A program made the translations under genes and the position numbers. From the UHGV virus genome UHGV-1639282: a DNA stretch of 16,370 bases, one strand, 5' to 3'. The first letter of the stretch is position 1, and each line of letters opens with the position of its first letter. Shown one piece after another: positions 1-11,297 of this stretch. The notes under the pieces are model-generated. The model ran no database searches, was not told where the DNA came from, and was given only the letters and a program-made list of their open reading frames with translations. This DNA comes from a virus.

Positions 1-1116
1 CTCACATAAAACCCTATTATCTCTATATTGTTCATTTTTTTCTTTTATTATATTTAGAATATTGCTTTCAGAAGAAACATAACCGTTCTTAAGGTAAAAA
101 TCTATATCATCATCGAAAGCACTTTCTGCTCGTTCATAAATAACATCAAGGCTATTAACAAATGAATATACAGAGTTAACTTCTTCCTTTTCATCTTTAT
201 CATCTAACATATAGTCGAATGCATGTATATTTTTGATTGACTCCTTAAATGAAGCATAATCAACGTTAGGAACACCAAAATAGTAAACCACTGAAAATAA
301 GACCAATCTATTAATAAAACTTTCTCTAACCTTATCCTCTGCTAACTTTAGCACATCTCTAAATATAACTAGAGATGATTTTATTTTATTTAATATTCTA
401 ATGTTTTTGATGTTTAAATCATTTACTAGGTTTTTTAACAAAAGAAAATCAGGGTCAGTCTCATAAAAAACTTTTCTTAAGTTTTTCTCAGGCGTGGGAT
501 CGTATTTTATTTCCACATCAATTATTTTTTCTCTATACTCTAAAAACTGTTGTTGTGCAGTTTCTTCATGTAAGTTATCTTCATTTAATATTAGAACAAC
601 CTTGCAATTTTTTCTTCTTGCCAACTCATCAATTACCCCCATAATCTCTTTAATTTCTAGCGCACTACCTTTTCGTTCAATATCATCAATGCAAACCAAA
701 TAATTATTAACAAATTTATACTCAAGAGATGACAGCAGATTATCAGTTTTGAACCCAAAAAAATCGTTCTTTCCAAAATGTATTAAAAATTTTGACAAGG
801 AGTTGTATTTCAACCATCCCCAAAACCCATTTCTATAACGAATCATAGTTCGATCCGTTTCAGATAAAATCAGTTCTTTATATTTCTTTTCATTAATTGG
901 TGTGGCACAATGATAAAGAGCTTTTTTAATGTCTCCAATAGAATTTATTCCAAACAAAGAAACATATGAATATGCATTATAATCTAATTTTTTAGAATGT
1001 TTAGTATAAAAGCTATTCCAATAATGCGTTTTACCTACTCCCCAATTTCCTTTTATGACAGCAACCCGATGATCTGAGTCCAAAAAATTTTTTAAAAATA
1101 CTTCTATCGATTCCAT
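1..1116 (-). CDS. KAP-family P-loop NTPase, 5' partial (ATG at 1116-1114; ORF runs off the window start, at least 372 codons)
   Basis: I scanned all 372 minus-strand codons from 1116 to 1 and found no in-frame stop; the upstream in-frame stop is at 1123-1125. The supplied ORF track does not list this ORF. Translation starts MESIEVFLKNFLDSDHRVAVIKGNWGVGKTHYW. GNWGVGKT (nt 1027-1050) is the Trp-containing Walker A typical of KAP NTPases, and LVCIDDIERK at residues 139-148 fits the KAP Walker B. SD-like AAGGA lies ~12 nt upstream of the ATG. The region is much more AT-rich than its neighbours. Confidence 0.6.
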   Translation of the reverse strand, partial: MESIEVFLKNFLDSDHRVAVIKGNWGVGKTHYWNSFYTKHSKKLDYNAYSYVSLFGINSIGDIKKALYHCATPINEKKYKELILSETDRTMIRYRNGFWGWLKYNSLSKFLIHFGKNDFFGFKTDNLLSSLEYKFVNNYLVCIDDIERKGSALEIKEIMGVIDELARRKNCKVVLILNEDNLHEETAQQQFLEYREKIIDVEIKYDPTPEKNLRKVFYETDPDFLLLKNLVNDLNIKNIRILNKIKSSLVIFRDVLKLAEDKVRESFINRLVLFSVVYYFGVPNVDYASFKESIKNIHAFDYMLDDKDEKEEVNSVYSFVNSLDVIYERAESAFDDDIDFYLKNGYVSSESNILNIIKEKNEQYRDNRVLCE

Positions 1117-1137
1117 TGGTGTCTATCCTTCAACTCA

Positions 1138-1167: not shown

Positions 1168-1527
1168 TCACCCTTTCTTCATCAACTCGCGTTTAATTTC
1201 ATCGGTACGCATCGTGACATCGGCAGCTGTGATCGCCTCGTTAAGTTTCACGATGTCCTCGATTTCCTGCGGTGTCTTCTCCGCAAGATGGAAAATAGCA
1301 GCACGAATCACATCAGAGCGGGTGAATTTCTCGAAGCGAGGGATGAACTTCATCATCTCCAGCAGTTCGAAGTATTCGTCCTCCAGTGACATTGTGCGGC
1401 TTTTAATTTTCTCTTTGCCACGAGTCGGGCGTCCCTGTGGTCTGACTGGTTGGCGCAAAGGAGTTGTGTTCTTAGCCGGTGCATCAGGCTCTTTGCGCTT
1501 TGCTAGGTCACCCATTTTCATGGACAT
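1168..1527 (-). CDS. Small basic protein (119 aa), possible ParG-like partner of the ParA-like ATPase
   Basis: Start ATG overlaps the upstream gene's stop (TAATG at 1525-1529). The N-terminal ~45 residues are Lys/Arg/Pro-rich and look disordered (KRKEPDAPAKNTTPLRQPVRPQGRPTRGKEKIKSR). The C-terminal part (KFTRSDVIRAAIFHLAEK) looks like a strand-helix unit. The function is inferred from gene context only. Confidence 0.45.
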   Translation of the reverse strand: MSMKMGDLAKRKEPDAPAKNTTPLRQPVRPQGRPTRGKEKIKSRTMSLEDEYFELLEMMKFIPRFEKFTRSDVIRAAIFHLAEKTPQEIEDIVKLNEAITAADVTMRTDEIKRELMKKG

Positions 1528-2195
1528 TATTCTTCTTCCTCCAGACTCAACAGATAATCTACAAATTCTTCAAACTCGGCTTCCGCCTTTTTGTCGCGCT
1601 CGCTACCGGTCATTTCAAAGATAGAACGACCAGACTCTTCCGCATCATCATAGACGTTGCGGTTATATAGATTGACTGGCGCAGACTCGATGCCAAACGT
1701 CTCAACAATCTCTTTAGCCGCCAAAATGCGAGACACTTGTGATGGCAAAGCCGGGCACTGGTTCATGACCGCGCGGACCTTCACTTTATCGTTCACATTA
1801 CGAACATTGTCGATAATAGGATCGATGTCACGCAGAGATTTCAAATCACGACGCTTAGGACGAAGCGGGATAATGATAACGTCGGCCATCAGCATCGCTT
1901 GTCGCTGAATTTCGGAGTCAAAGCCACCAGCATCTACCACTACATACTCAGCTCTACCCTGAAGCGATTTTAGGTGCTTAATGATGTCATCCTGAACGTA
2001 TGCAAAAGGAATCAGCTCAAGGTCTTCGTTCTGTCGACGGTCTTCACACCAGCTTGTTGTCGTGCGCTGAATATCTATATCAGTGATATAAACCTTCTTC
2101 TTCTTTTTGACTTTCAGGCAAACGGCAATTTGCTGGGCAACAGTGGATTTGCCAGGCCCGCCCTTTGTGCCGCCAACCACAAAGATCTTGGTCAT
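1527..2195 (-). CDS. ParA/Soj/MinD-family ATPase with deviant Walker A (222 aa)
   Basis: N-terminus MTKIFVVGGTKGGPGKSTVAQQIA contains the deviant Walker A KGGxGK[ST]. A VVVDAGG motif follows, and the size matches small type-Ib partition ATPases. The protein ends in an acidic tail (LSLEEEE). ATG at 2195-2193 with AAGGGA ~9 nt upstream. Confidence 0.8.
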   Translation of the reverse strand: MTKIFVVGGTKGGPGKSTVAQQIAVCLKVKKKKKVYITDIDIQRTTTSWCEDRRQNEDLELIPFAYVQDDIIKHLKSLQGRAEYVVVDAGGFDSEIQRQAMLMADVIIIPLRPKRRDLKSLRDIDPIIDNVRNVNDKVKVRAVMNQCPALPSQVSRILAAKEIVETFGIESAPVNLYNRNVYDDAEESGRSIFEMTGSERDKKAEAEFEEFVDYLLSLEEEE

Positions 2196-2341
2196 TGGAG
2201 AGTTCCCTTTGCGTATATAATTATCGTCTGAAACAACTTGTTTTCTTATATGTGATATAGCCTAAATGCCTACGGCTGCGGTGTAAAGGTTATTTAGTAG
2301 GTTGTTATTGCCTATTGCTAGTAACTGTTTTCATTTGTCTG

Positions 2342-2370
2342 TTGAAAAAAGTGACAATCATCTCTATATT
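2342..2370 (+). promoter_or_regulatory. Candidate sigma70 promoter TTGAAA-N17-TATATT, directed toward ataR
   Basis: Hexamers at 2342-2347 and 2365-2370 with a 17-bp spacer, each 5/6 match to consensus. The predicted start site falls on the dyad at 2375-2393. It lies ~145 bp upstream of the ataR ATG. Sequence pattern only. Confidence 0.3.
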
Positions 2371-2374
2371 ACGA

Positions 2375-2393
2375 GTACGGTAAATTGCCGTAC
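2375..2393. promoter_or_regulatory. Dyad symmetry GTACGG-N7-CCGTAC, candidate operator
   Basis: Inverted hexamers read directly from the sequence, positioned at the predicted +1 of the candidate promoter in the divergent region between the ParA-like gene and ataR. Confidence 0.3.
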
Positions 2394-2417
2394 ACAATTT
2401 GATGACACATACGCAAT

Positions 2418-2504
2418 GGGCTATAGCCCAGTTAAATAACCTTTGAGTCGAAAACTCAGTTTAAATAGAGAGCAATGATGGCCTTCCTACATCACCGGCC
2501 ATCA
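2418..2504. promoter_or_regulatory. Cluster of dyad symmetries in the ataR leader: GGGCTATAGCCC (2418-2429), TGAGT-N5-ACTCA (2444-2458), TGATGGCC-N13-GGCCATCA (2476-2504)
   Basis: A perfect 12-bp palindrome and two inverted repeats read directly from the sequence. The last one ends at the ataR Shine-Dalgarno (AGGGGG, 2505-2510). Type II antitoxin/TA complexes commonly autoregulate by binding palindromes in their own promoter region. Confidence 0.3.
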
Positions 2505-2514
2505 GGGGGTACAC

Positions 2515-2784
2515 ATGTCCGCACTGAAAAAGCAGCGCATCGATTTGAGATTAACCGATGACGATAAAAGCATCATCGAGGAAGCTGCCGCAATGTCTAA
2601 CCAGAGCATTACCCAGTTCATGGTTAGCAGTGCATCCGAACGTGCCGTGAAGGTGATAGAGCAACACCGTAGACTGGTTCTAAGTGAAGAGTCCTGGAAT
2701 CTGGTTATGGACGCTATAAGCAATCCTCCGGCACCGAACGACAAGCTGAAACGAGCTGCCAATCGTCTGAAAAGCATGGAGTAA
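2515..2784 (+). CDS. ataR: DUF1778-type RHH antitoxin (AtaR/TacA family)
   Basis: 89 aa: MSALKKQRIDLRLTDDDKSIIEEAAAMSNQSITQFMVSSASERAVKVIEQHRRLVLSEESW. It closely resembles AtaR/TacA sequences as I recall them, and it sits 7 nt upstream of a GNAT toxin gene. ATG with AGGGGG SD. Confidence 0.88.
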   Translation: MSALKKQRIDLRLTDDDKSIIEEAAAMSNQSITQFMVSSASERAVKVIEQHRRLVLSEESWNLVMDAISNPPAPNDKLKRAANRLKSME

Positions 2785-2791
2785 TTTACTC

Positions 2792-3313
2792 GTGAGCAAT
2801 ACGACGATCGAGATTTTCTCTGGAGAGAACGATTATGATCTAAACGGTTTTGATTGCGGCGAAGAGTCACTAAACGCATTTTTGACCAACCACTTAAAAA
2901 GACAGCATGAAGGAAAAATTCTTCGCGCTTATGTGCTTTGCACTAAAGAAGAAATACCAAAGGTATTAGGTTATTACACTTTGTCAGGCAGCTGCTTTGA
3001 GAAAGAAACCTTACCTTCAAAGAGTCAGCAAAAGAAAGTGCCTTATCGGAATGTCCCAAGTATCACTTTAGGCAGACTGGCTTTGGACAAATCTCTTCAA
3101 GGTCATGGGCTTGGCTCAATGCTTGTAACACATGCAATGCGCGTTGTGTACAATGCATCTCTTGCTGTAGGCATTCATGGACTTTTCGTTGAGGCGTTAA
3201 ATGACAAAGCCAAGGCGTTTTATAAAAGTTTAGGCTTTATCCAGCTGGTTGGTAACAACGAGCGTTCTTTGTTCTATCCTACAAAATCTATCGAAAAATT
3301 GTTCGAAGAATAA
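2792..3313 (+). CDS. ataT: GNAT-family acetyltransferase toxin (AtaT/TacT family, aminoacyl-tRNA acetylating)
   Basis: 173 aa, GTG start with GGAG upstream. Contains the GNAT core LQGHGLGSMLVTHAMRVVYNASLAVGIHGLFVEALNDKAKAFYKSLGF and the N-terminal DYDLNGFDCGEESLNAFL segment typical of AtaT/TacT. Classic antitoxin-then-toxin order. Confidence 0.88.
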   Translation: MSNTTIEIFSGENDYDLNGFDCGEESLNAFLTNHLKRQHEGKILRAYVLCTKEEIPKVLGYYTLSGSCFEKETLPSKSQQKKVPYRNVPSITLGRLALDKSLQGHGLGSMLVTHAMRVVYNASLAVGIHGLFVEALNDKAKAFYKSLGFIQLVGNNERSLFYPTKSIEKLFEE

Positions 3314-3316
3314 TGT

Positions 3317-3338
3317 GTTCCCCTCATTTGAGGGGAAC
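3317..3338. terminator. GC-rich hairpin (GTTCCCCTCA-TT-TGAGGGGAAC) between convergent ataT and o-spanin stops
   Basis: 10-bp perfect inverted repeat, 4 nt after the ataT stop (3311-3313) and 8 nt before the o-spanin stop (3346-3348). Flanking T-runs are short on both sides, so efficiency is uncertain. Plausibly a bidirectional terminator. Confidence 0.45.
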
Positions 3339-3345
3339 TTCGACA

Positions 3346-3561
3346 TCACCAACCACAAACCCTCTCTCCCATCGTATTGTGAAAAAGGATTTGGCGTTCG
3401 GTTTCTTCAGTCATTACATCATTATTGCTGATATAGATAGGCTCAGCCCCATCGCAGAACAACACGCTGGCTGTTTGTGGTTTAATGACGCACCCACTTA
3501 TCATACAACTCACGATGAACGGCAGAAGCATCTTTCTGACGTATTTTACTGCTCGTCTCAT
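3346..3561 (-). CDS. Putative o-spanin (Rz1-like outer-membrane lipoprotein), overlapped architecture
   Basis: N-terminus MRRAVKYVRKMLLPFIVSCMISGC has a basic n-region, a hydrophobic core and a lipobox-like ISGC. It is a short protein with additional Cys residues. It starts inside the 3' part of the i-spanin gene in another frame and extends beyond it. Confidence 0.5.
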   Translation of the reverse strand: MRRAVKYVRKMLLPFIVSCMISGCVIKPQTASVLFCDGAEPIYISNNDVMTEETERQILFHNTMGERVCGW

Positions 3562-3733
3562 TCACCACTTTCACTGTGTTTTGAAGTCGTTTTCTGTCTT
3601 CCTGTTTTGCCTTCTCTTCCATTGCTCGTCGCGCCGCATTCCCGCCCATCGTGTAAGCGCCGACAAGAACGAAAAGAACGGCAGCCAGCGTAATCAAAGC
3701 AACTTTTAGCTTTGTCATCAGGCTGCCTAGCAT
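3482..3733 (-). CDS. Putative i-spanin (Rz-like): N-terminal TM helix plus charged helical periplasmic domain
   Basis: 83 aa with TM segment LKVALITLAAVLFVLVGAYTM followed by a charged helical region (RRAMEEKAKQEDRKRLQ). The ATG is 1 nt after the stop of the upstream hydrolase-like gene. It is short for an Rz protein, so the call is tentative. Confidence 0.5.
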   Translation of the reverse strand: MLGSLMTKLKVALITLAAVLFVLVGAYTMGGNAARRAMEEKAKQEDRKRLQNTVKVVNETSSKIRQKDASAVHRELYDKWVRH

Positions 3734-3734
3734 A

Positions 3735-4427
3735 TTAGACCATCCCTTTCTGGTGTTTTCTTACCTGCGACCAGGCAATGAATCCTGCCACAACAATAGT
3801 GGCAATACCGAAGATGATGCGTACTGTATCCCCGCTAGAGATATGACCTTGTGCTTTATCCATAGCAGCGGAAACCTGCGGCATAACATCGGCCAGCTGA
3901 GCCAGACCAATACCTGCTGTAACAGTTGCGCCTGCGGTTTCTTTAGTTACAGGAACAGCCTTCACGGTTTTCACCGGCTTAACAACGCCAGCTCGACGCA
4001 GACCTTCCTCAATAACTTCTGCCGCATACCAGGTGTTCAGCGTTTTTAGCGGGCCTCGGCCATTCTCGTGGCGAATGATTGCCTCAACCAAAGGTCGAAG
4101 GATGTCGTAATCATGCAGATCGATGATCATGTCTGCGGTTACACCAACGGCTTTAGACACCTCATTAATGTAGGCGTCAGTATTGTTTTCATTCGGCGGT
4201 GCCCAGCGTTCAATAACTTCACGAATGGTATCGATACTTGTGCCGTCTTTTGCGCGACGTTTATCGTGGTAGGTAATTAGAGTCACCGCCAGCGCACGAA
4301 TCCCCCAAACAGGGTCTTTAAACGTGCAAAAGCGCGGTTCGTCTGGATTCGCAACCAGACCTTGCCACGGTGATCCTTTATCAAGATTACCGGGGTTATT
4401 ATTACGAATGCCTCTCGGGGTCTTCAT
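3735..4427 (-). CDS. Putative endolysin-like protein with C-terminal transmembrane anchor (230 aa from ATG 4427; the ORF track's 4454 start is GTG)
   Basis: Starts MKTPRGIRNNNPGNL with a strong SD (CAGGAGA) 8-9 nt upstream of the ATG at 4427-4425. The C-terminus has a Lys/Val/Thr-rich linker and a hydrophobic helix IIFGIATIVVAGFIAWS. The N-terminal motif is reminiscent of phage lytic-enzyme families, but I cannot confirm the family without a search. The lysis role is inferred mainly from the adjacent spanin pair. Confidence 0.45.
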   Translation of the reverse strand: MKTPRGIRNNNPGNLDKGSPWQGLVANPDEPRFCTFKDPVWGIRALAVTLITYHDKRRAKDGTSIDTIREVIERWAPPNENNTDAYINEVSKAVGVTADMIIDLHDYDILRPLVEAIIRHENGRGPLKTLNTWYAAEVIEEGLRRAGVVKPVKTVKAVPVTKETAGATVTAGIGLAQLADVMPQVSAAMDKAQGHISSGDTVRIIFGIATIVVAGFIAWSQVRKHQKGMV

Positions 4428-4440
4428 CCTTGATCTCCTG

Positions 4441-4764
4441 TTATTGCAGTCCACTTTTTACGCCATACGCGGCTAACCCCAAAAGCAGTGCGGTAATAAT
4501 GAACGACGTTATTTTAGAAACAATGCCGCCAAAGAACCCACTTGAGATGGAATCTAACCGGTTAAGGAGTTTGTCCAGATTGGAGTGTTGAATACTATGT
4601 TGCGCCGGGGTCATATCACCAAAGTAGGTTTTCAGCTGATCATTGACCTCCTGGCCAATTTCTTCACGTAGCTCTTTACCTAATTTGCCAACAACCTCCC
4701 GAGCAACGATCGCGGCAATACGCTCAACTTGCTCTGTTGTAACGCCCGCCATCTCGTTCGACAT
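4441..4764 (-). CDS. Small membrane protein, possible holin or lysis regulator (107 aa from the ATG at 4764, which has a GGAGGA SD)
   Basis: The ORF track starts at 4776, but the in-frame ATG at 4764-4762 has GGAGGA 6 nt upstream. There is a soluble ~85-aa N-terminal region and a single C-terminal TM helix (ITSFIITALLLGLAAYGV). Its position immediately upstream of the hydrolase-like gene suggests a holin role, but the topology is atypical. Confidence 0.4.
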   Translation of the reverse strand: MSNEMAGVTTEQVERIAAIVAREVVGKLGKELREEIGQEVNDQLKTYFGDMTPAQHSIQHSNLDKLLNRLDSISSGFFGGIVSKITSFIITALLLGLAAYGVKSGLQ

Positions 4765-5086
4765 GTTTTCCTCCATGAAAAGTCAAATCGGGATGGCGGA
4801 TTTATATCACATTTCACCCTTTTGTTGTAGGTGTGTACTTACCTATCATTCAGCATTGCAACCGATTGATGAGAAAGCACCTACTCCAACCCATCGCCAG
4901 TTATAGATGCTACACGCTTTGTATAAGGTATAGTCGTTCACTTTTTTAACAGCATATATGGGTATGACTGTCTCCTGTCCACCAATGATAGCTTCACCAT
5001 AACATATAGGTGTCGGCAATTTCTGGCAGCCAGTAAGAGAGAGAACAACAGCTATTGTTAGAAATAATCTTTACATCATTTACTCA

Positions 5087-6116: not shown

Positions 6117-6639
6117 CAGGCTTTTGTGGCCATTCAGGATTTGCCGTATCCACACGGCTGACCAGAACACTGTAGCGTTCCCATGCTTCCAGTCGTGTGC
6201 GCTCCTCGTCTGTTGCCATATTCAGCCTGACAGCGCGTTCCAGCGGCTGGATGACTGATTCAGCTTCGGAAAGCAATGCGGCCTTTTGTGATTCGGCCTG
6301 TTGTTGTTGCTCGTCTGCCGTATAAATCCGTTTAACCACAGCTCCGTCCCTGAACATCCATTTACCCGAAATATCAGCCCGGCGATTTGCTGTAATGTCA
6401 GCAACCTCAACCACACTTAAACCTTCTGGATTTATTGTAGATACGTCTTTATTTATAGCCACAATAATTCCATCTGATGTGTAAGCAATTTTTATAGTGT
6501 CATCCTGGAAGTTCTTTTGTTCCTCATACCAGTTTTTACCGTCTTCAGAATACAACCAGACAACACCAAATTGTCGCGTCAATTCATATTGTTCAACAGT
6601 TTTTGGATTACCTGATCTGATGTTTTTTAAATGCTGCAT
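6112..6639 (-). CDS. tfa: Tail fiber assembly protein (Tfa-like chaperone)
   Basis: 175 aa. C-terminal region [25 protein letters not shown] matches the conserved end of lambda-type Tfa proteins as I recall them. Its start is 2 nt after the side tail fiber stop. Confidence 0.82.
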
Positions 6640-6641
6640 AA

Positions 6642-9600
6642 TTAAATACTTCCCGCGTTATACCATGTACCATTGATACAATACTGCACCGGCCTTGCCT
6701 GAGTTGTATCAATAAGTTCGTCCTTATTTGAGTTAATTGAGGCAGTAACAACATAACCAGATTTATCGTTCCATCCAGGACCATTCCATGTTTGCACAGA
6801 CGATTTTGTACCTAATCGAATACCTGTAATAAATCGTGAATTACATTCTGCTTTGGTATATGCCCCAACATCTCCCGCAGATGGTTTGCGTGTTGTAGTA
6901 TAAAATTCCGACCAGTCGGCTTCAAAACCATAACCGTCACGCGCAGAACGATAATAAATACCGCCGTTCTTATAATTCACGCGGAACTGTACAGCAGGGC
7001 AGCTCCCCGTATTCATATTGAAGTGGAGGATTAATGTCGATGCTCCACTGATATCTGCATCATAAACACCGCTATTCCAGTTCCAGCCAACAGCTTTATC
7101 ATTTGCAACCCTGCTTCCTGTTTGCCCTAAAGCAAATGCAGGCTGCTGGTTTTTCGTGTTGTAGTCTCGTCGCCAGCCAGGAGCATAAGCATCACCATGA
7201 TTAATATAAGTGAATTGTGCATTAGTAGTTCCGCCACCGCTGGAAGTGCTCGGGGTGGTTACACGGATGGTCATGGCACCTTTATTACCCATAACCTCAA
7301 TAACGCAACCAGCAAGGTGAATAAGTCCACATCCGGTGTCAGTAATAATTTTATTATTGCCGTATGACCATGAGCATTTACACATCCAGTATGGATGATT
7401 GAAGGCCCACTGAGATTCCAGCCATTCAATAAATTGCGCCGTCGTCCAGTTTCCTGCACCTGTGCTAATAGAGCCATGAAAAGAGCGGCAAGCACCTATT
7501 GTTTGCGTAAATTTATCTTTGTTTGGAATATCTGCGCCGTTCTGGTTTTTCTGTAATGCTCCTGCGGCTAATTCTACAGTTTGCTCAAGATTTAAATCTG
7601 CCGCCGTTAGCTCAATATTTTTAGAACCGTCAAACGACACCCCATTTATAGTTCTAGCGGTTTGTAACTTGGTCGCTGTAGCCGCGTTACCGGATGTATT
7701 CTGATTACCCGCAACGTTAACACCAGGTAAATTAATATTCGCAGTGCCATCGAAGCTAACACCACCGATGGTTCTTGCTGTCGCAAGTTTTGTCGCGGTA
7801 GCAGCATTCCCCGTGGTGTTCTGGTTACCAGCAATGTTTACACCCGGCAGGTTGATATTGGCGGAGCCATCGAATGACACGCCGCCTATTGTGCGTGCTG
7901 TTTGCAGTTTTGTTGCAGTTGCAGCATTACCGTTCAAACTACCATTGATGCCGCCAGTAACATTGAGTCCATTACCAATGGACACAGCACCGCTGGTATT
8001 ATTAATTGTAATAGGTCGCAAACCGTTCCATGAACCTAATGTGTCTCCTGATGCTGTTAGCATGAAATATGTGTTCGATCCATCATTACGGATAAAGAAC
8101 CCAAAGCTACCGTAAGCAATGCGGAAACCATTTGCATATTTTGAAATGATCTCGCCAGAAGATGTCAAACCTCCAGATAATGTACCACCGGTAAGAGGTA
8201 ATGCACCGACATCAGCCGCAGTAGGCTTGTTTTTAGTGTTATAAGAACGACGCCAGCCTGGCGCATAATCACTCCCATTGTACACATAAATAAATTCCGC
8301 ATTATTAACACCACCATGACCTGATGTTGTTGTCGTTGTAACACGAATAGTGTAGTGGCTTGTTGACTTATTACTAAACACCTCAATCACGGAACCAGAT
8401 AGATCGATCCTACCGCAACCAGTGTCGTCTATATAATTATTGTTGGCGTAAGCCCATGAGCACCGTGCAATCCAATATTTGTTTGAAAATGCACCCTGAT
8501 TATTTAGCCAAGTTATAAATTGAGCAGTCGTAAATGGCGTTCCGTTACCACTATTTAACCATCCAGCGGCAGCGGTTGGCGCGTTTATATCAGCCGGCTG
8601 AGGCATAAATCCAGTCGTGTAAACCTGCTCCCAACCACTTTCAAAACCATAGCCATCGCGAGATGAACGATAAAACAACCCACCATTTTTATAGTGAGCC
8701 TTAATTTGAAGCGTACGGCAACTACCTACACCAGTATAAAAGTTGGCAAGAATATAACTGTCGCCCGTTCTAGTTACATTATAAGCACCAGATTCAGCAT
8801 TCCACGGCACGCCGCCATCAGCATCAGCATATGACCCTGTTGCTCTTCTTGCGAAAGCGGCAACATGCGCGGCGGTTAAAGTGATATCAGTAGAGCCATC
8901 AAATGGAACACCGGATATTTTTCTTGCAGTCTGAAGTTTCGTAGCTGTATCAGAGTTCCCCTTAACCCCTTTTGGAGAATTAAGTGGTGTATTGATCGTC
9001 ACTTCACCTGTTGCGTTATTTACTGCAAATGGTCGAAGACCGTTCCAGCCACCGTACTGGTCGCCTTTATCAGTCATGAGCAAGTAAGTATTTGCTCCAT
9101 CATTTCGCCATATGACACCGTAATCGCCAGCAATCATCCTTAACGCATTCTGACTACGGACAATAACTTCATCATTAGCGTAAACCTTATTACCGCTAAT
9201 ATCCGCATTTGTGAGGAGTGCGTGCGAACTATAGAATCCTCTACCGTTGGAGAAATCAAGTATAGTATCAGCGTCCACGCATTCTGTTCTAGGGTCTGTA
9301 GCGCCCCATTTGTAAGTTGATTGCCCGATAACATAATCGGCAGATGGTACAACAACAGATAAGCCTTCTTCTACATATACAGCAATAGGAAACGCTTCAC
9401 CTTCAACATAGAACACAGAACACAGATCATCCGCTTTTCTACCCATCATGATAGAATGAATAGCACGCTCATTTGCGTGATAGATATGAAACATTCCATA
9501 AGCATAATGTCCCCTGTCAGTCCAACCGCCAGGCATGACAAAACCATTGAACTCACAGTTGTTCATCCTATCATTGGCAGTCTTTGAACTTGTACTTATC

Positions 9601-11297
9601 GTCACCCTGGATGCTAATTCACTGCTGAATCCAGAAGAACGACGAATAACCACAGGGTAAAACTTACCAGCTTCAACTCCTGCGGGCGCATTCACTGTTG
9701 AATACTTCATTCCTCGTTTAGCGGCCATATCAGTCTTGCTGGCAGCATTAATGTTGCTCAGGAAGCGGCCCTTGTCTGGGATATCAGCGCCATTCTGATT
9801 CTTCGCCAATCGGCTATTCGCATTGTCATTGGCTGCTTTTACTGCCTTTGGCGTTGCCGCCAGCGTTTCAGACGTGCTGTTGGTCGCACTGCTGAGCTGT
9901 ACTATCCCCTTTTTCGTCGTGCTCGCATCCTCAAGCGCCACAGCGGATGCAATATCCTCTGCCCGTTTTGCCGCTGTCTCGGCGCGCGTTGCCGCGGATT
10001 CTGCCGTACTTTTGCTCTGTGCTGCCGCCGTCGCACTGCCAGCTGCCTCTGTCGCCTTCGTGGATGCCGTCGTGGCGCTGCCCTTCGCTGCTGACGCTTG
10101 TCTGGTCGCCTCATCTTTTGAAGCAGACGCAGATGATGCCGATGACGCCGCCGAACTGGCTGACGATGCGGCAGCCGTTTTTGAGGATTCTGCGCTGGTT
10201 TCCGACGCTTTCGCGTTCGTTTCGGATGTCTTCGCTGCGGAAGCAGACCTCGCTGCTGCGCTGGCCTGTTCAGTGGCTTCGCCAGCCTTCGTTGTGGCTG
10301 TTGAAGCAGACGATGCGGCGCTTTCTGCCGATTTTCCGGCGGCGGTGGCACTGGCTGAGGCCTGCCCGGCACTTGTTGACGCGGCACTGGCAGACGACGC
10401 AGCCGCTGTTTTTGAGCCTGCCGCAGCTGAGGCGCTCTGTCCCGCTGCCGTCTCAGAAGACTTAGCGTTCGTCTCGGACGTTTTTGCCGCCTTCGCGGAA
10501 TTTGCTGCCGCCGTTGCCGAGGAAGCTGCGCTACTGGCGCTCAAGGATGCGTTCGTTTCTGATGATTTCGCTGCCTCTTTTGAGGCCGCCGCATCCCGGG
10601 CTGAGGTGGCAGCTTCTGACGCTTTCGTGGTCGCGGTGGATGCAGAAGTGGCTGCTGATTGTTGTGACGCTGCGGCATTCGTTTCAGATTTTTTCGCAGC
10701 AGTTGCACTCGCACTTGCGGCACTTTGTGAGGATGCCGCATCGGATGCACTTTGAGACGCTTGAGAGGCTTTTTCTCCAGCGGTATTGGCGCTTTCTGCT
10801 GCTGCGGCAGCACTGGCCGCCGCCTCACGAGCTTTGTCGCCAGCAGCATCAATCGCGTCAGTGTTATTTTTATACCACTCAACGTTTTCGTTGTGCTCGT
10901 TGACGATCTGCATTAGCGGCTTAACGGTTACTTCTGTACCGTCTTCACGCTCGATTGTCACCTCATCCAGCGCAGTCAACCAACTGCGCATGGACTTGGA
11001 ATCAGCCGACATACGCGACATTAGCGCAGTAAAGCGCGCGCTAAACTGTGTTAAGTCGCCTTCATAGGTCGTAATGATTCGGCACGGAACCTCAGACTGA
11101 GTTTCGCCGGTATAAGGTTCTGAGAGAACAATGTTCGTATCACTGGTTACGCGCTTGATCTCATACAGCTTATTGTCGGGGCCAATGACGATCATCCCCG
11201 GCAACACACCATTAGCTGTTACGTTCCAGGCTGTCCCTGCCCCAACCAGAGTATTGCTACCCTGTGTAAATGTGATAGTACCTTCCCTGTACCACAT
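6642..11297 (-). CDS. Side tail fiber protein (Stf-like), 1551 aa, mosaic
   Basis: ATG with AAGGAG 8 nt upstream. Long Ala/Ser/Thr-rich shaft containing [24 protein letters not shown] and [42 protein letters not shown], which I recall as near-identical to lambda Stf. Phage tail fibre repeats ([29 protein letters not shown]) in four copies. Duplicated distal modules, followed by tfa. Confidence 0.9.
7590..7945 (-). repeat. Three tandem ~120-bp coding repeats (phage tail fibre repeat, ~40 aa each) inside stf; a fourth isolated copy near 8880-8960
   Basis: Protein repeats [40 protein letters not shown] x3 with matching DNA periodicity visible at 7600-7940. The isolated copy reads [29 protein letters not shown]. 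Boundaries are approximate. Confidence 0.6.
9950..10850 (-). repeat. Low-complexity GC-rich (GCN-codon) Ala/Ser/Thr-rich shaft-coding region of stf
   Basis: About 300 aa dominated by A/S/T with recurring KTSETNA/SASAA motifs. Its lack of stops in several frames produces the long spurious overlapping ORFs on both strands in the supplied track. Boundaries are approximate. Confidence 0.6.

Follow-up and report, generated by a model that had tools for sequence, protein, structure and literature searches.

The stretch of DNA analysed here, 16,370 nucleotides (nt) of the virus genome UHGV-1639282 (the window in what follows), carries at positions 2515–3313 an operon of two genes that encode a DUF1778 antitoxin and a GNAT toxin. 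With a probability of about 65%, we consider this to be a functional type II toxin–antitoxin (TA) operon of the AtaRT/KacAT branch, which is carried as an exchangeable cassette on an SSU5-like phage-plasmid and whose most likely role is post-segregational killing. The identity and biochemical mechanism of the pair are well supported by its homology to proteins that have been solved and assayed. Gene integrity, family membership, the residues for catalysis and for cofactor, tRNA and DNA binding, the operator, purifying selection, and the boundaries and distribution of the cassette were all computed here.

The operon belongs to the AtaT/KacT branch

An open reading frame (ORF) scan places both genes on the plus strand, antitoxin then toxin, with a gap of 7 nt. 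The antitoxin gene (2515–2784) starts with ATG and encodes 89 amino acids (aa), made up of an N-terminal ribbon-helix-helix (RHH) DNA-binding part and a C-terminal toxin-binding part. The toxin gene (2792–3313, 173 aa) is preceded by GGAG at 2778–2781 and begins with GTG, a start also chosen by PGAP and by the annotation of the related phage Cyrano, which is pLF82 of strain LF82. A preliminary description, made from the letters of the window, had read these two genes as a DUF1778 antitoxin and a GNAT toxin, and its ORFs proved exact. The antitoxin matches the Pfam family TacA1/DUF1778 (PF08681) over residues 8–86 with an E-value of 3.5e-26 and 91 bits, against a cut-off of 21, and the toxin lies above the gathering scores of four GNAT families in Pfam. 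When compared by phmmer with the sequences of PDB entries, the toxin matches AtaT (6GTS, 6AJM, 7CHD) at an E-value of about 1e-78 (4e-78; 264 bits) over residues 1–172 of 175, and KacT (5ZGN, 5XUN) at about 1e-75, with a close score of 256 bits. The antitoxin matches KacA (2.5e-41) and AtaR (5e-40) from end to end. These similarities between the protein sequences are far beyond chance. The toxin aligns to canonical AtaT without gaps, with 119 of 172 residues identical (69%), and the antitoxin shares 75% of its residues with AtaR and 79% with KacA. Compared with KacA, the RHH part reaches 88% identity and the toxin-binding part 70%; against AtaR, the toxin-binding part is 69% identical.

The preliminary description had assigned the pair to the AtaR/AtaT (TacA/TacT) family. 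The family is right, and can now be narrowed: by their sequences the two proteins belong to the AtaT/KacT branch (“clade A” of PMC9177977), apart from the Salmonella TacT branch. Membership of the latter (TacT, TacT2 and TacT3, which are specific for Gly-tRNA) was considered and rejected, as the TacT-type toxins 6G96, 7AK7, 7AK8 and 5FVJ match our toxin only at E-values of 1e-12 to 1e-20, compared with 1e-78 for AtaT. AtaT and AtaR proper were also rejected: the proteins are only 69% and 75% identical and the DNA 64.5%, and the pair is found on a plasmid, outside the chromosomal livJ–panM locus. The toxin has no match to the AtaT-specific NCBIfam model. Judged by these comparisons, the plasmid toxin is a paralogous allele and AtaT itself is excluded.

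An ATG at 2478, 37 nt before the ATG at 2515, was rejected as the start of the antitoxin. It is out of frame in the window, and we therefore take the start to be at 2515. The corresponding antitoxin of Cyrano (CYRAN_27, positions 2812–3117 of Cyrano, which align with window 2478–2784) is annotated as 101 aa long, with a 12-aa N-terminal extension; it is a 1-nt difference from Cyrano that puts the ATG at 2478 out of frame in the window. Since AtaR and KacA begin at the downstream Met, the extension in Cyrano is probably an annotation artefact.

Catalytic and binding residues are retained under purifying selection

Toxins of this family have a pyrophosphate loop of the form Q/R-x-x-G-x-G/A and a catalytic tyrosine (Y144 in AtaT, Y145 in KacT). 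The preliminary description had proposed an alignment to AtaT as a check on the catalytic Tyr and the acetyl-CoA-binding residues, and in that alignment both Y144 and the acetyl-CoA loop Q103-G-H-G106-L-G108 are present in our toxin. Two of these positions are the sites of published inactivating mutations of AtaT, Y144F and G108D (PMC7595197). We mapped the full set of 20 experimentally studied AtaT residues (Yashiro et al. 2020, PMC7595197) on to the toxin through the ungapped alignment, and found 15 to be identical: Y144, G108, L27, F30, H34, R37, S76, K77, S78, K81, K82, Y85, R95, L136 and K165. The antitoxin, for its part, keeps R8, D10 and R12, the residues with which KacA reads its operator (PMC6698736).

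Comparison with the Cyrano allele points to purifying selection maintaining both genes. The toxin genes differ at 40 nt and 10 aa, giving a ratio of nonsynonymous to synonymous substitution rates (dN/dS) of 0.083, and the antitoxin genes at 13 nt and 2 aa (dN/dS 0.043).

The operon has a family-type operator and a long leader

The top plus-strand match in a promoter scan is a predicted sigma-70 promoter at 2342–2370 (TTGAAA, a 17-nt spacer and TATATT; 10/12 consensus matches). The prediction gains support from the operator, which follows 4 nt further on, and from the retention of both hexamers in the Cyrano upstream region, which is 81% identical. The operator is the plus-strand palindrome GTACGG-TAAATTG-CCGTAC at 2375–2393. 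Its half-sites and 7-bp spacing equal those of the crystallised KacAT operator DNA, the 27-mer AAATGTACGGTTATTAACCGTACATGA (PMC6698736), and the same GTACGG/CCGTAC half-sites are found in the palindrome upstream of canonical ataR, GTACGGTGACATACCGTAC. The pattern GTACGG-N7-CCGTAC occurs once in the 16.4-kb window, and in 0 of 200 shuffles. The counterpart in Cyrano is GTACGGTGATATGCCGTAC; between the two alleles the half-sites and promoter hexamers are constant, while the operator spacer and the surrounding DNA differ. At the level of sequence, then, the operon has what autoregulation takes in this family, a palindromic operator and the R8/D10/R12 set that would read it.

Between the operator and the antitoxin ATG lies a plus-strand leader of about 120 nt (2394–2514) with three small hairpins, which is absent from chromosomal ataRT, where the operator is about 30 nt from the ATG. 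The leader contains a perfect 8-bp inverted repeat, TGATGGCC-N13-GGCCATCA (2476–2504), which abuts the Shine-Dalgarno sequence GGGGG (2505–2509). The repeat is kept in the 91% identical allele, with N12 in place of N13, and the leader has conserved blocks in common with that of Cyrano. A structured RNA in the leader was considered and rejected, the fold having a z-score of −1.46 and 16 of 200 shuffles folding equally well. In a scan of 2150–3450 no Rfam family was matched by the leader. The sole match in that range, to a group II intron fragment, lies inside the spanin coding region and was taken as chance (23 bits against a threshold of 32, E 0.027).

At the other end of the operon, a perfect GC-rich hairpin, GTTCCCCTCA-TT-TGAGGGGAAC, is found at 3317–3338, between the convergent toxin and spanin genes. 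It is 100% kept in Cyrano. As a terminator of the TA operon it is doubtful: there is no plus-strand T-run, and the hairpin is terminator-like on the minus strand only.

The operon lies on an exchangeable cassette of a phage-plasmid

Sequence comparison shows the window to be part of an SSU5-like E. coli phage-plasmid. Along most of its length it shares 95–97% identity with Escherichia phage CMS-2020a and phage Cyrano; with Salmonella phage SSU5 it shares about 80%. Alignments to SSU5 and PhiR41_1 break off at 2291/2292 and start again at 3349/3354, delimiting a cassette of 1056 bp (2293–3348) between parA and the spanin genes that holds the promoter and operator, the leader, the antitoxin, the toxin and the terminal hairpin. 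Cyrano and plasmid pXH988_2 (NZ_CP019354) are colinear with the window across the cassette, and in pXH988_2 the cassette region is 100% identical. In SSU5, PhiR41_1 and plasmid NZ_CP027358 the same slot is occupied by another gene pair, on the minus strand, in which a small gene precedes a large one. From these alignments, therefore, the cassette has taken the place of another two-gene module and is not a simple insertion. The preliminary description had spoken of an insertion in a block of minus-strand genes, which is here refined to a replacement.

Among complete E. coli genomes, the parA module is present in 254 and the cassette in 152 (~60%), and every place of the parA module is plasmid-borne (264/264). 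In PLSDB, the cassette is found on 144 plasmids. There are two alleles, one ~98–100% and the other ~91% identical to the window. Chromosomal ataRT, which has 64.5% DNA identity to the cassette, is found on about 1600 E. coli chromosomes (~30%). The clean breakpoints and the carriage by only ~60% of related E. coli elements support the earlier proposal that the cassette was acquired independently of its surroundings. Foreign composition was set aside as an argument, since the GC content of the cassette (42.4%) is only mildly below that of its flanks (48%).

The parA–TA block is also intact in LC807807.1 (pD228, 204.7 kb), a conjugative IncY/MOBH cointegrate in which a truncated endolysin gene gives way to IS1 and unrelated genes. 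This plasmid looks like a decaying phage-plasmid that has retained its maintenance genes.

Proposed mechanism and biological role

By homology, the operon would work as follows. The promoter at 2342–2370 would drive the antitoxin and then the toxin, and a hexamer of two toxins and four antitoxins would bind the palindrome at 2375–2393, over the transcription start, and repress the operon, in analogy with the AtaRT–DNA and KacAT–DNA complexes. The C-terminal part of the antitoxin would block the active site of the toxin. If the labile antitoxin were no longer replenished, the toxin would be freed to move acetyl groups from acetyl-CoA to the alpha-amino group of charged tRNAs, stopping translation; clade A toxins act on Gly-tRNA and on tRNAs with hydrophobic amino acids (PMC9177977), so that Gly, Trp, Tyr, Phe and Met would be the expected targets. 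Daughter cells that lose the low-copy plasmid prophage would thus undergo growth arrest, and the pair would back up the adjacent ParA partition system. Toxicity, the tRNA targets, the lability of the antitoxin and the stabilising role are what we infer for the pair.

The preliminary description had offered addiction and abortive infection side by side. Context and precedent favour addiction, and abortive infection is left without a PADLOC match. Addiction is favoured because the cassette lies directly beside the partition genes of a plasmid prophage of low copy number (the parA module is plasmid-borne at all 264 of its places), and because it is expressed in the carrier state, as judged by the Cyrano orthologues, whose transcription in the lysogen stands at 35x and 60x the local background. 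Cyrano itself is present at ~5.5 copies per cell (PMC9928086 for both observations). It is also favoured by the retention of the pair beside parA in the 205-kb cointegrate with the IS1-interrupted lysis module, and by the precedent of the GNAT TA system GmvAT, which stabilises the Shigella plasmid pINV experimentally via Lon (PMC6519299). TA systems belong to the shell genome of the SSU5 supergroup (Pfeifer et al. 2021, PMC7969092).

Several observations weigh against this interpretation. About 40% of related elements are without the cassette, which is therefore dispensable. The promoter score is, taken alone, not above chance. Of the 20 mapped AtaT residues, five substrate or tRNA contacts differ in our toxin (A26S, R40E, N41G, R71K and K79Q), and on the strength of these changes its tRNA targets may differ from those of AtaT. 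In addition, the ~30% of E. coli chromosomes that carry ataRT encode an antitoxin 75% identical to ours (69% in the toxin-binding part), and by analogy chromosomal AtaR could blunt addiction: cross-neutralisation between chromosome and plasmid exists for KacT2/KacA3, although most GNAT–RHH pairs tested do not cross-react (PMC9431474). Finally, with ~5 copies per cell and active partition, loss of the plasmid may be rare anyway.

Four other explanations have to be set against post-segregational killing. Abortive infection or superinfection exclusion as the main function, in which an invader that shuts off host transcription or degrades the antitoxin would free the toxin to stop translation before the invader's cycle ends, is unlikely in our view. 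The cassette does sit in an exchangeable slot of a temperate element, with a candidate defence gene for a KAP NTPase (PDC-S49, E 1e-22) in a variable slot across the partition genes; SSU5-group elements have assorted defence systems (bioRxiv 10.1101/2025.09.12.675607); and other tRNA-targeting TA toxins are known defence effectors (PMC11559606, PMC12409363). However, neither protein matches any family of PADLOC-DB 2.0 at E <= 0.01, the literature searched reports no GNAT/DUF1778 pair in phage defence, the DefenseFinder survey in the same preprint has no entry for the cassette among the systems of SSU5 elements, and the nearest relatives of the pair are TA systems of chromosomal housekeeping loci. 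We regard it as similarly unlikely that the cassette is instead a selfish hitchhiker, of little or no benefit to the phage-plasmid, which persists because it is hard to lose and whose killing is neutralised in many hosts by chromosomal AtaR (anti-addiction). Its patchy carriage (~60%), the ~1600 chromosomes with canonical ataRT, the 75% identity of the antitoxin to AtaR and the plasmid antitoxin of Klebsiella that neutralises a chromosomal GNAT toxin (PMC9431474) would all agree with such a history, yet strong purifying selection acts on both genes, two diverged alleles are kept at the same slot, the toxin-binding part is just 69% identical to that of AtaR, and the lack of cross-reaction among most tested pairs speaks against neutralisation.

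Another possibility, which we think very unlikely, is that the pair is a “moron” that benefits the host by helping it to form persisters or to withstand stress, for instance in macrophages, as reported for Salmonella TacT. In the adherent-invasive strain LF82 the orthologue counts as one of the expressed morons (PMC9928086), and links with antibiotic tolerance and with non-growing intracellular cells have been described for KacT and TacT (PMC6698736, PMC11205521). The element is, however, found in E. coli of very varied sources (animals, water, food), and the tight linkage to parA would be left unexplained. That the pair is decayed or inactive is scarcely credible: the GTG start of the toxin and its five altered tRNA-contact residues might be read as signs of decay, but both frames are full-length and ungapped, the catalytic and cofactor residues are all intact, dN/dS is well below 1, and the genes are kept in ~150 genomes. 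Post-segregational killing by an intact TA operon thus stays our preferred explanation.

The alternative module in the slot

The pair that occupies the slot in SSU5, PhiR41_1 and NZ_CP027358, and which is outside this window, consists of PHROGs 2594 and 3307, both of unknown function. Its proteins are 30–41% identical among the three versions examined, compared with 86–98% for the flanking DNA. The module contains an invariant motif, H153-x-V-C-D157 / Q160-T / G164-A. Neither Pfam nor the PDB sequences gave a match to the pair, and hhalign probabilities were 0.2% for the large protein against the toxins and 0.6% for the small protein against the antitoxins. A Foldseek search with the predicted structure of the large protein gave weak matches (best E 0.03), nearly all of them to GNATs. 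The large protein is thus predicted to have a GNAT fold, and on that model the slot would hold, in either state, a small gene followed by a gene for a GNAT-fold protein. It is conceivable, if quite improbable, that the parA–spanin slot is a dedicated exchange site for acetyltransferase-based two-gene modules which, if both were toxin–antidote-like, might serve in competition (incompatibility or exclusion) between co-resident or incoming phage-plasmids and phages, beyond plain addiction. Were this so, the cassette in the window would be the first GNAT-type TA system to act against phages or other elements, and a new GNAT toxin family would be represented by the alternative module. The GNAT-fold protein of the displaced module is the sole part of this analysis that might repay follow-up.

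Gene neighbourhood

The cassette lies between maintenance and lysis genes, as the preliminary description had it. To its left are the genes for ParA (1527–2195, minus strand; Pfam AAA_31/MipZ/CbiA/ParA) and, directly downstream of it, a putative 119-aa ParA partner (1168–1527, minus strand). To its right are the minus-strand spanin, endolysin and holin genes (3346–4776), recognised by homology to annotated genes of Cyrano and SSU5. The TA pair is the sole plus-strand unit in the window, also as described earlier; all other long ORFs with annotated counterparts in relatives are on the minus strand, including one that runs off the left end of the window. No tRNA genes that might be partners of the toxin were found in the window.

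The 119-aa protein is labelled “RelE/ParE putative toxin” in the annotation of Cyrano. It has no Pfam match and belongs to PHROG 5111 (unknown function). Its gene overlaps the stop of parA, a position more in keeping with a ParA partner (a centromere-binding protein) than with a toxin.

Across the partition genes from the cassette, the gene that runs off the left end (1–1122, minus strand) codes for 374 aa or more and is embedded in DNA of just 28.6% GC. Its product is a P-loop NTPase of the KAP family (Pfam PF07693, E 3e-6), which also matches PDC-S49, a defence candidate in PADLOC (E 1e-22). This DNA is not homologous to Cyrano, SSU5, PhiR41_1 or pXH988_2, and thus constitutes a second variable slot; those four elements have other genes there, such as a plus-strand LEM-3-like GIY-YIG gene, and the corresponding position in NZ_CP027358 is taken by a 564-aa “P-loop NTPase fold protein”. 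The long tail-fibre gene (6642–11297, minus strand) is mosaic. One part is ~82% identical to the S/U tail-fibre region of P1 and another 86–91% identical to side tail fibres of lambdoid E. coli phages; the window regions concerned are 6320–7705 and 8641–10776.

Prior annotation and significance

The pair in the window is an ordinary, already annotated member of a well-characterised family. RefSeq labels the antitoxin as a DUF1778 protein or TacA-family antitoxin and the toxin as a GNAT N-acetyltransferase (“GNAT family N-acetyltransferase” is its PGAP name), and one plasmid record names the toxin ataT. Misson et al. 2023 (PMC9928086) described the Cyrano pair as a “KacT acetyltransferase-type toxin” and a “putative antitoxin”, and counted them among the morons expressed in the lysogen. 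A 2024 review (PMC11205521), drawing on TADB 3.0, stated that pLF82 is devoid of TA systems, which is at odds with the KacT-like pair (and HicAB) in the annotation of Cyrano/pLF82.

Our results matter little for discovery and their practical points are modest. Among the SSU5-type phage-plasmids that circulate in clinical and animal E. coli, a textbook tRNA-acetylating TA pair is commonly carried as an exchangeable accessory. Attempts at curing or engineering such elements should reckon with the toxin. Possible cross-talk with chromosomal ataRT, present in ~30% of E. coli, could affect which hosts retain the element.

Comparison with known systems

The closest characterised system, by toxin score, is AtaR–AtaT of enterohaemorrhagic E. 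coli O157:H7 (6GTS, 6AJM, 7CHD), which has the same gene order with a gap of 6–7 nt. The two systems align without gaps (toxin 69%, antitoxin 75%) and share Y144, G108, the Q-G-x-G-x-G loop, most of the acceptor-stem contacts and the operator half-sites. They differ in location, ataRT being chromosomal at livJ–panM and our pair on a phage-plasmid, and in their DNA, which is 64.5% identical. The window toxin starts with GTG and has the five contact substitutions from A26S to K79Q (A26S, R40E, N41G, R71K, K79Q), and its operator is ~120 nt from the start codon with the hairpin-bearing leader between, compared with ~30 nt in ataRT. KacA–KacT of Klebsiella pneumoniae (5ZGN, 5XUN) is alike in its antitoxin (79%, with 88% in the RHH part), in R8/D10/R12, and in the operator half-sites and 7-bp spacer, but is chromosomal in Klebsiella.

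With respect to role, the phd-doc system of the phage-plasmid P1 (mentioned in PMC7969092) is the addiction module of a low-copy, plasmid-lysogenic phage, although its proteins and toxin chemistry are unrelated to those of the window pair. GmvA–GmvT of the Shigella flexneri plasmid pINV was tested in PMC9177977 apart from the clade A toxins AtaT, KacT and AcaT, and it acts mainly at 21 C. As a GNAT TA system on a large low-copy plasmid with ParA partition, it is the functional model for the role that we propose here.

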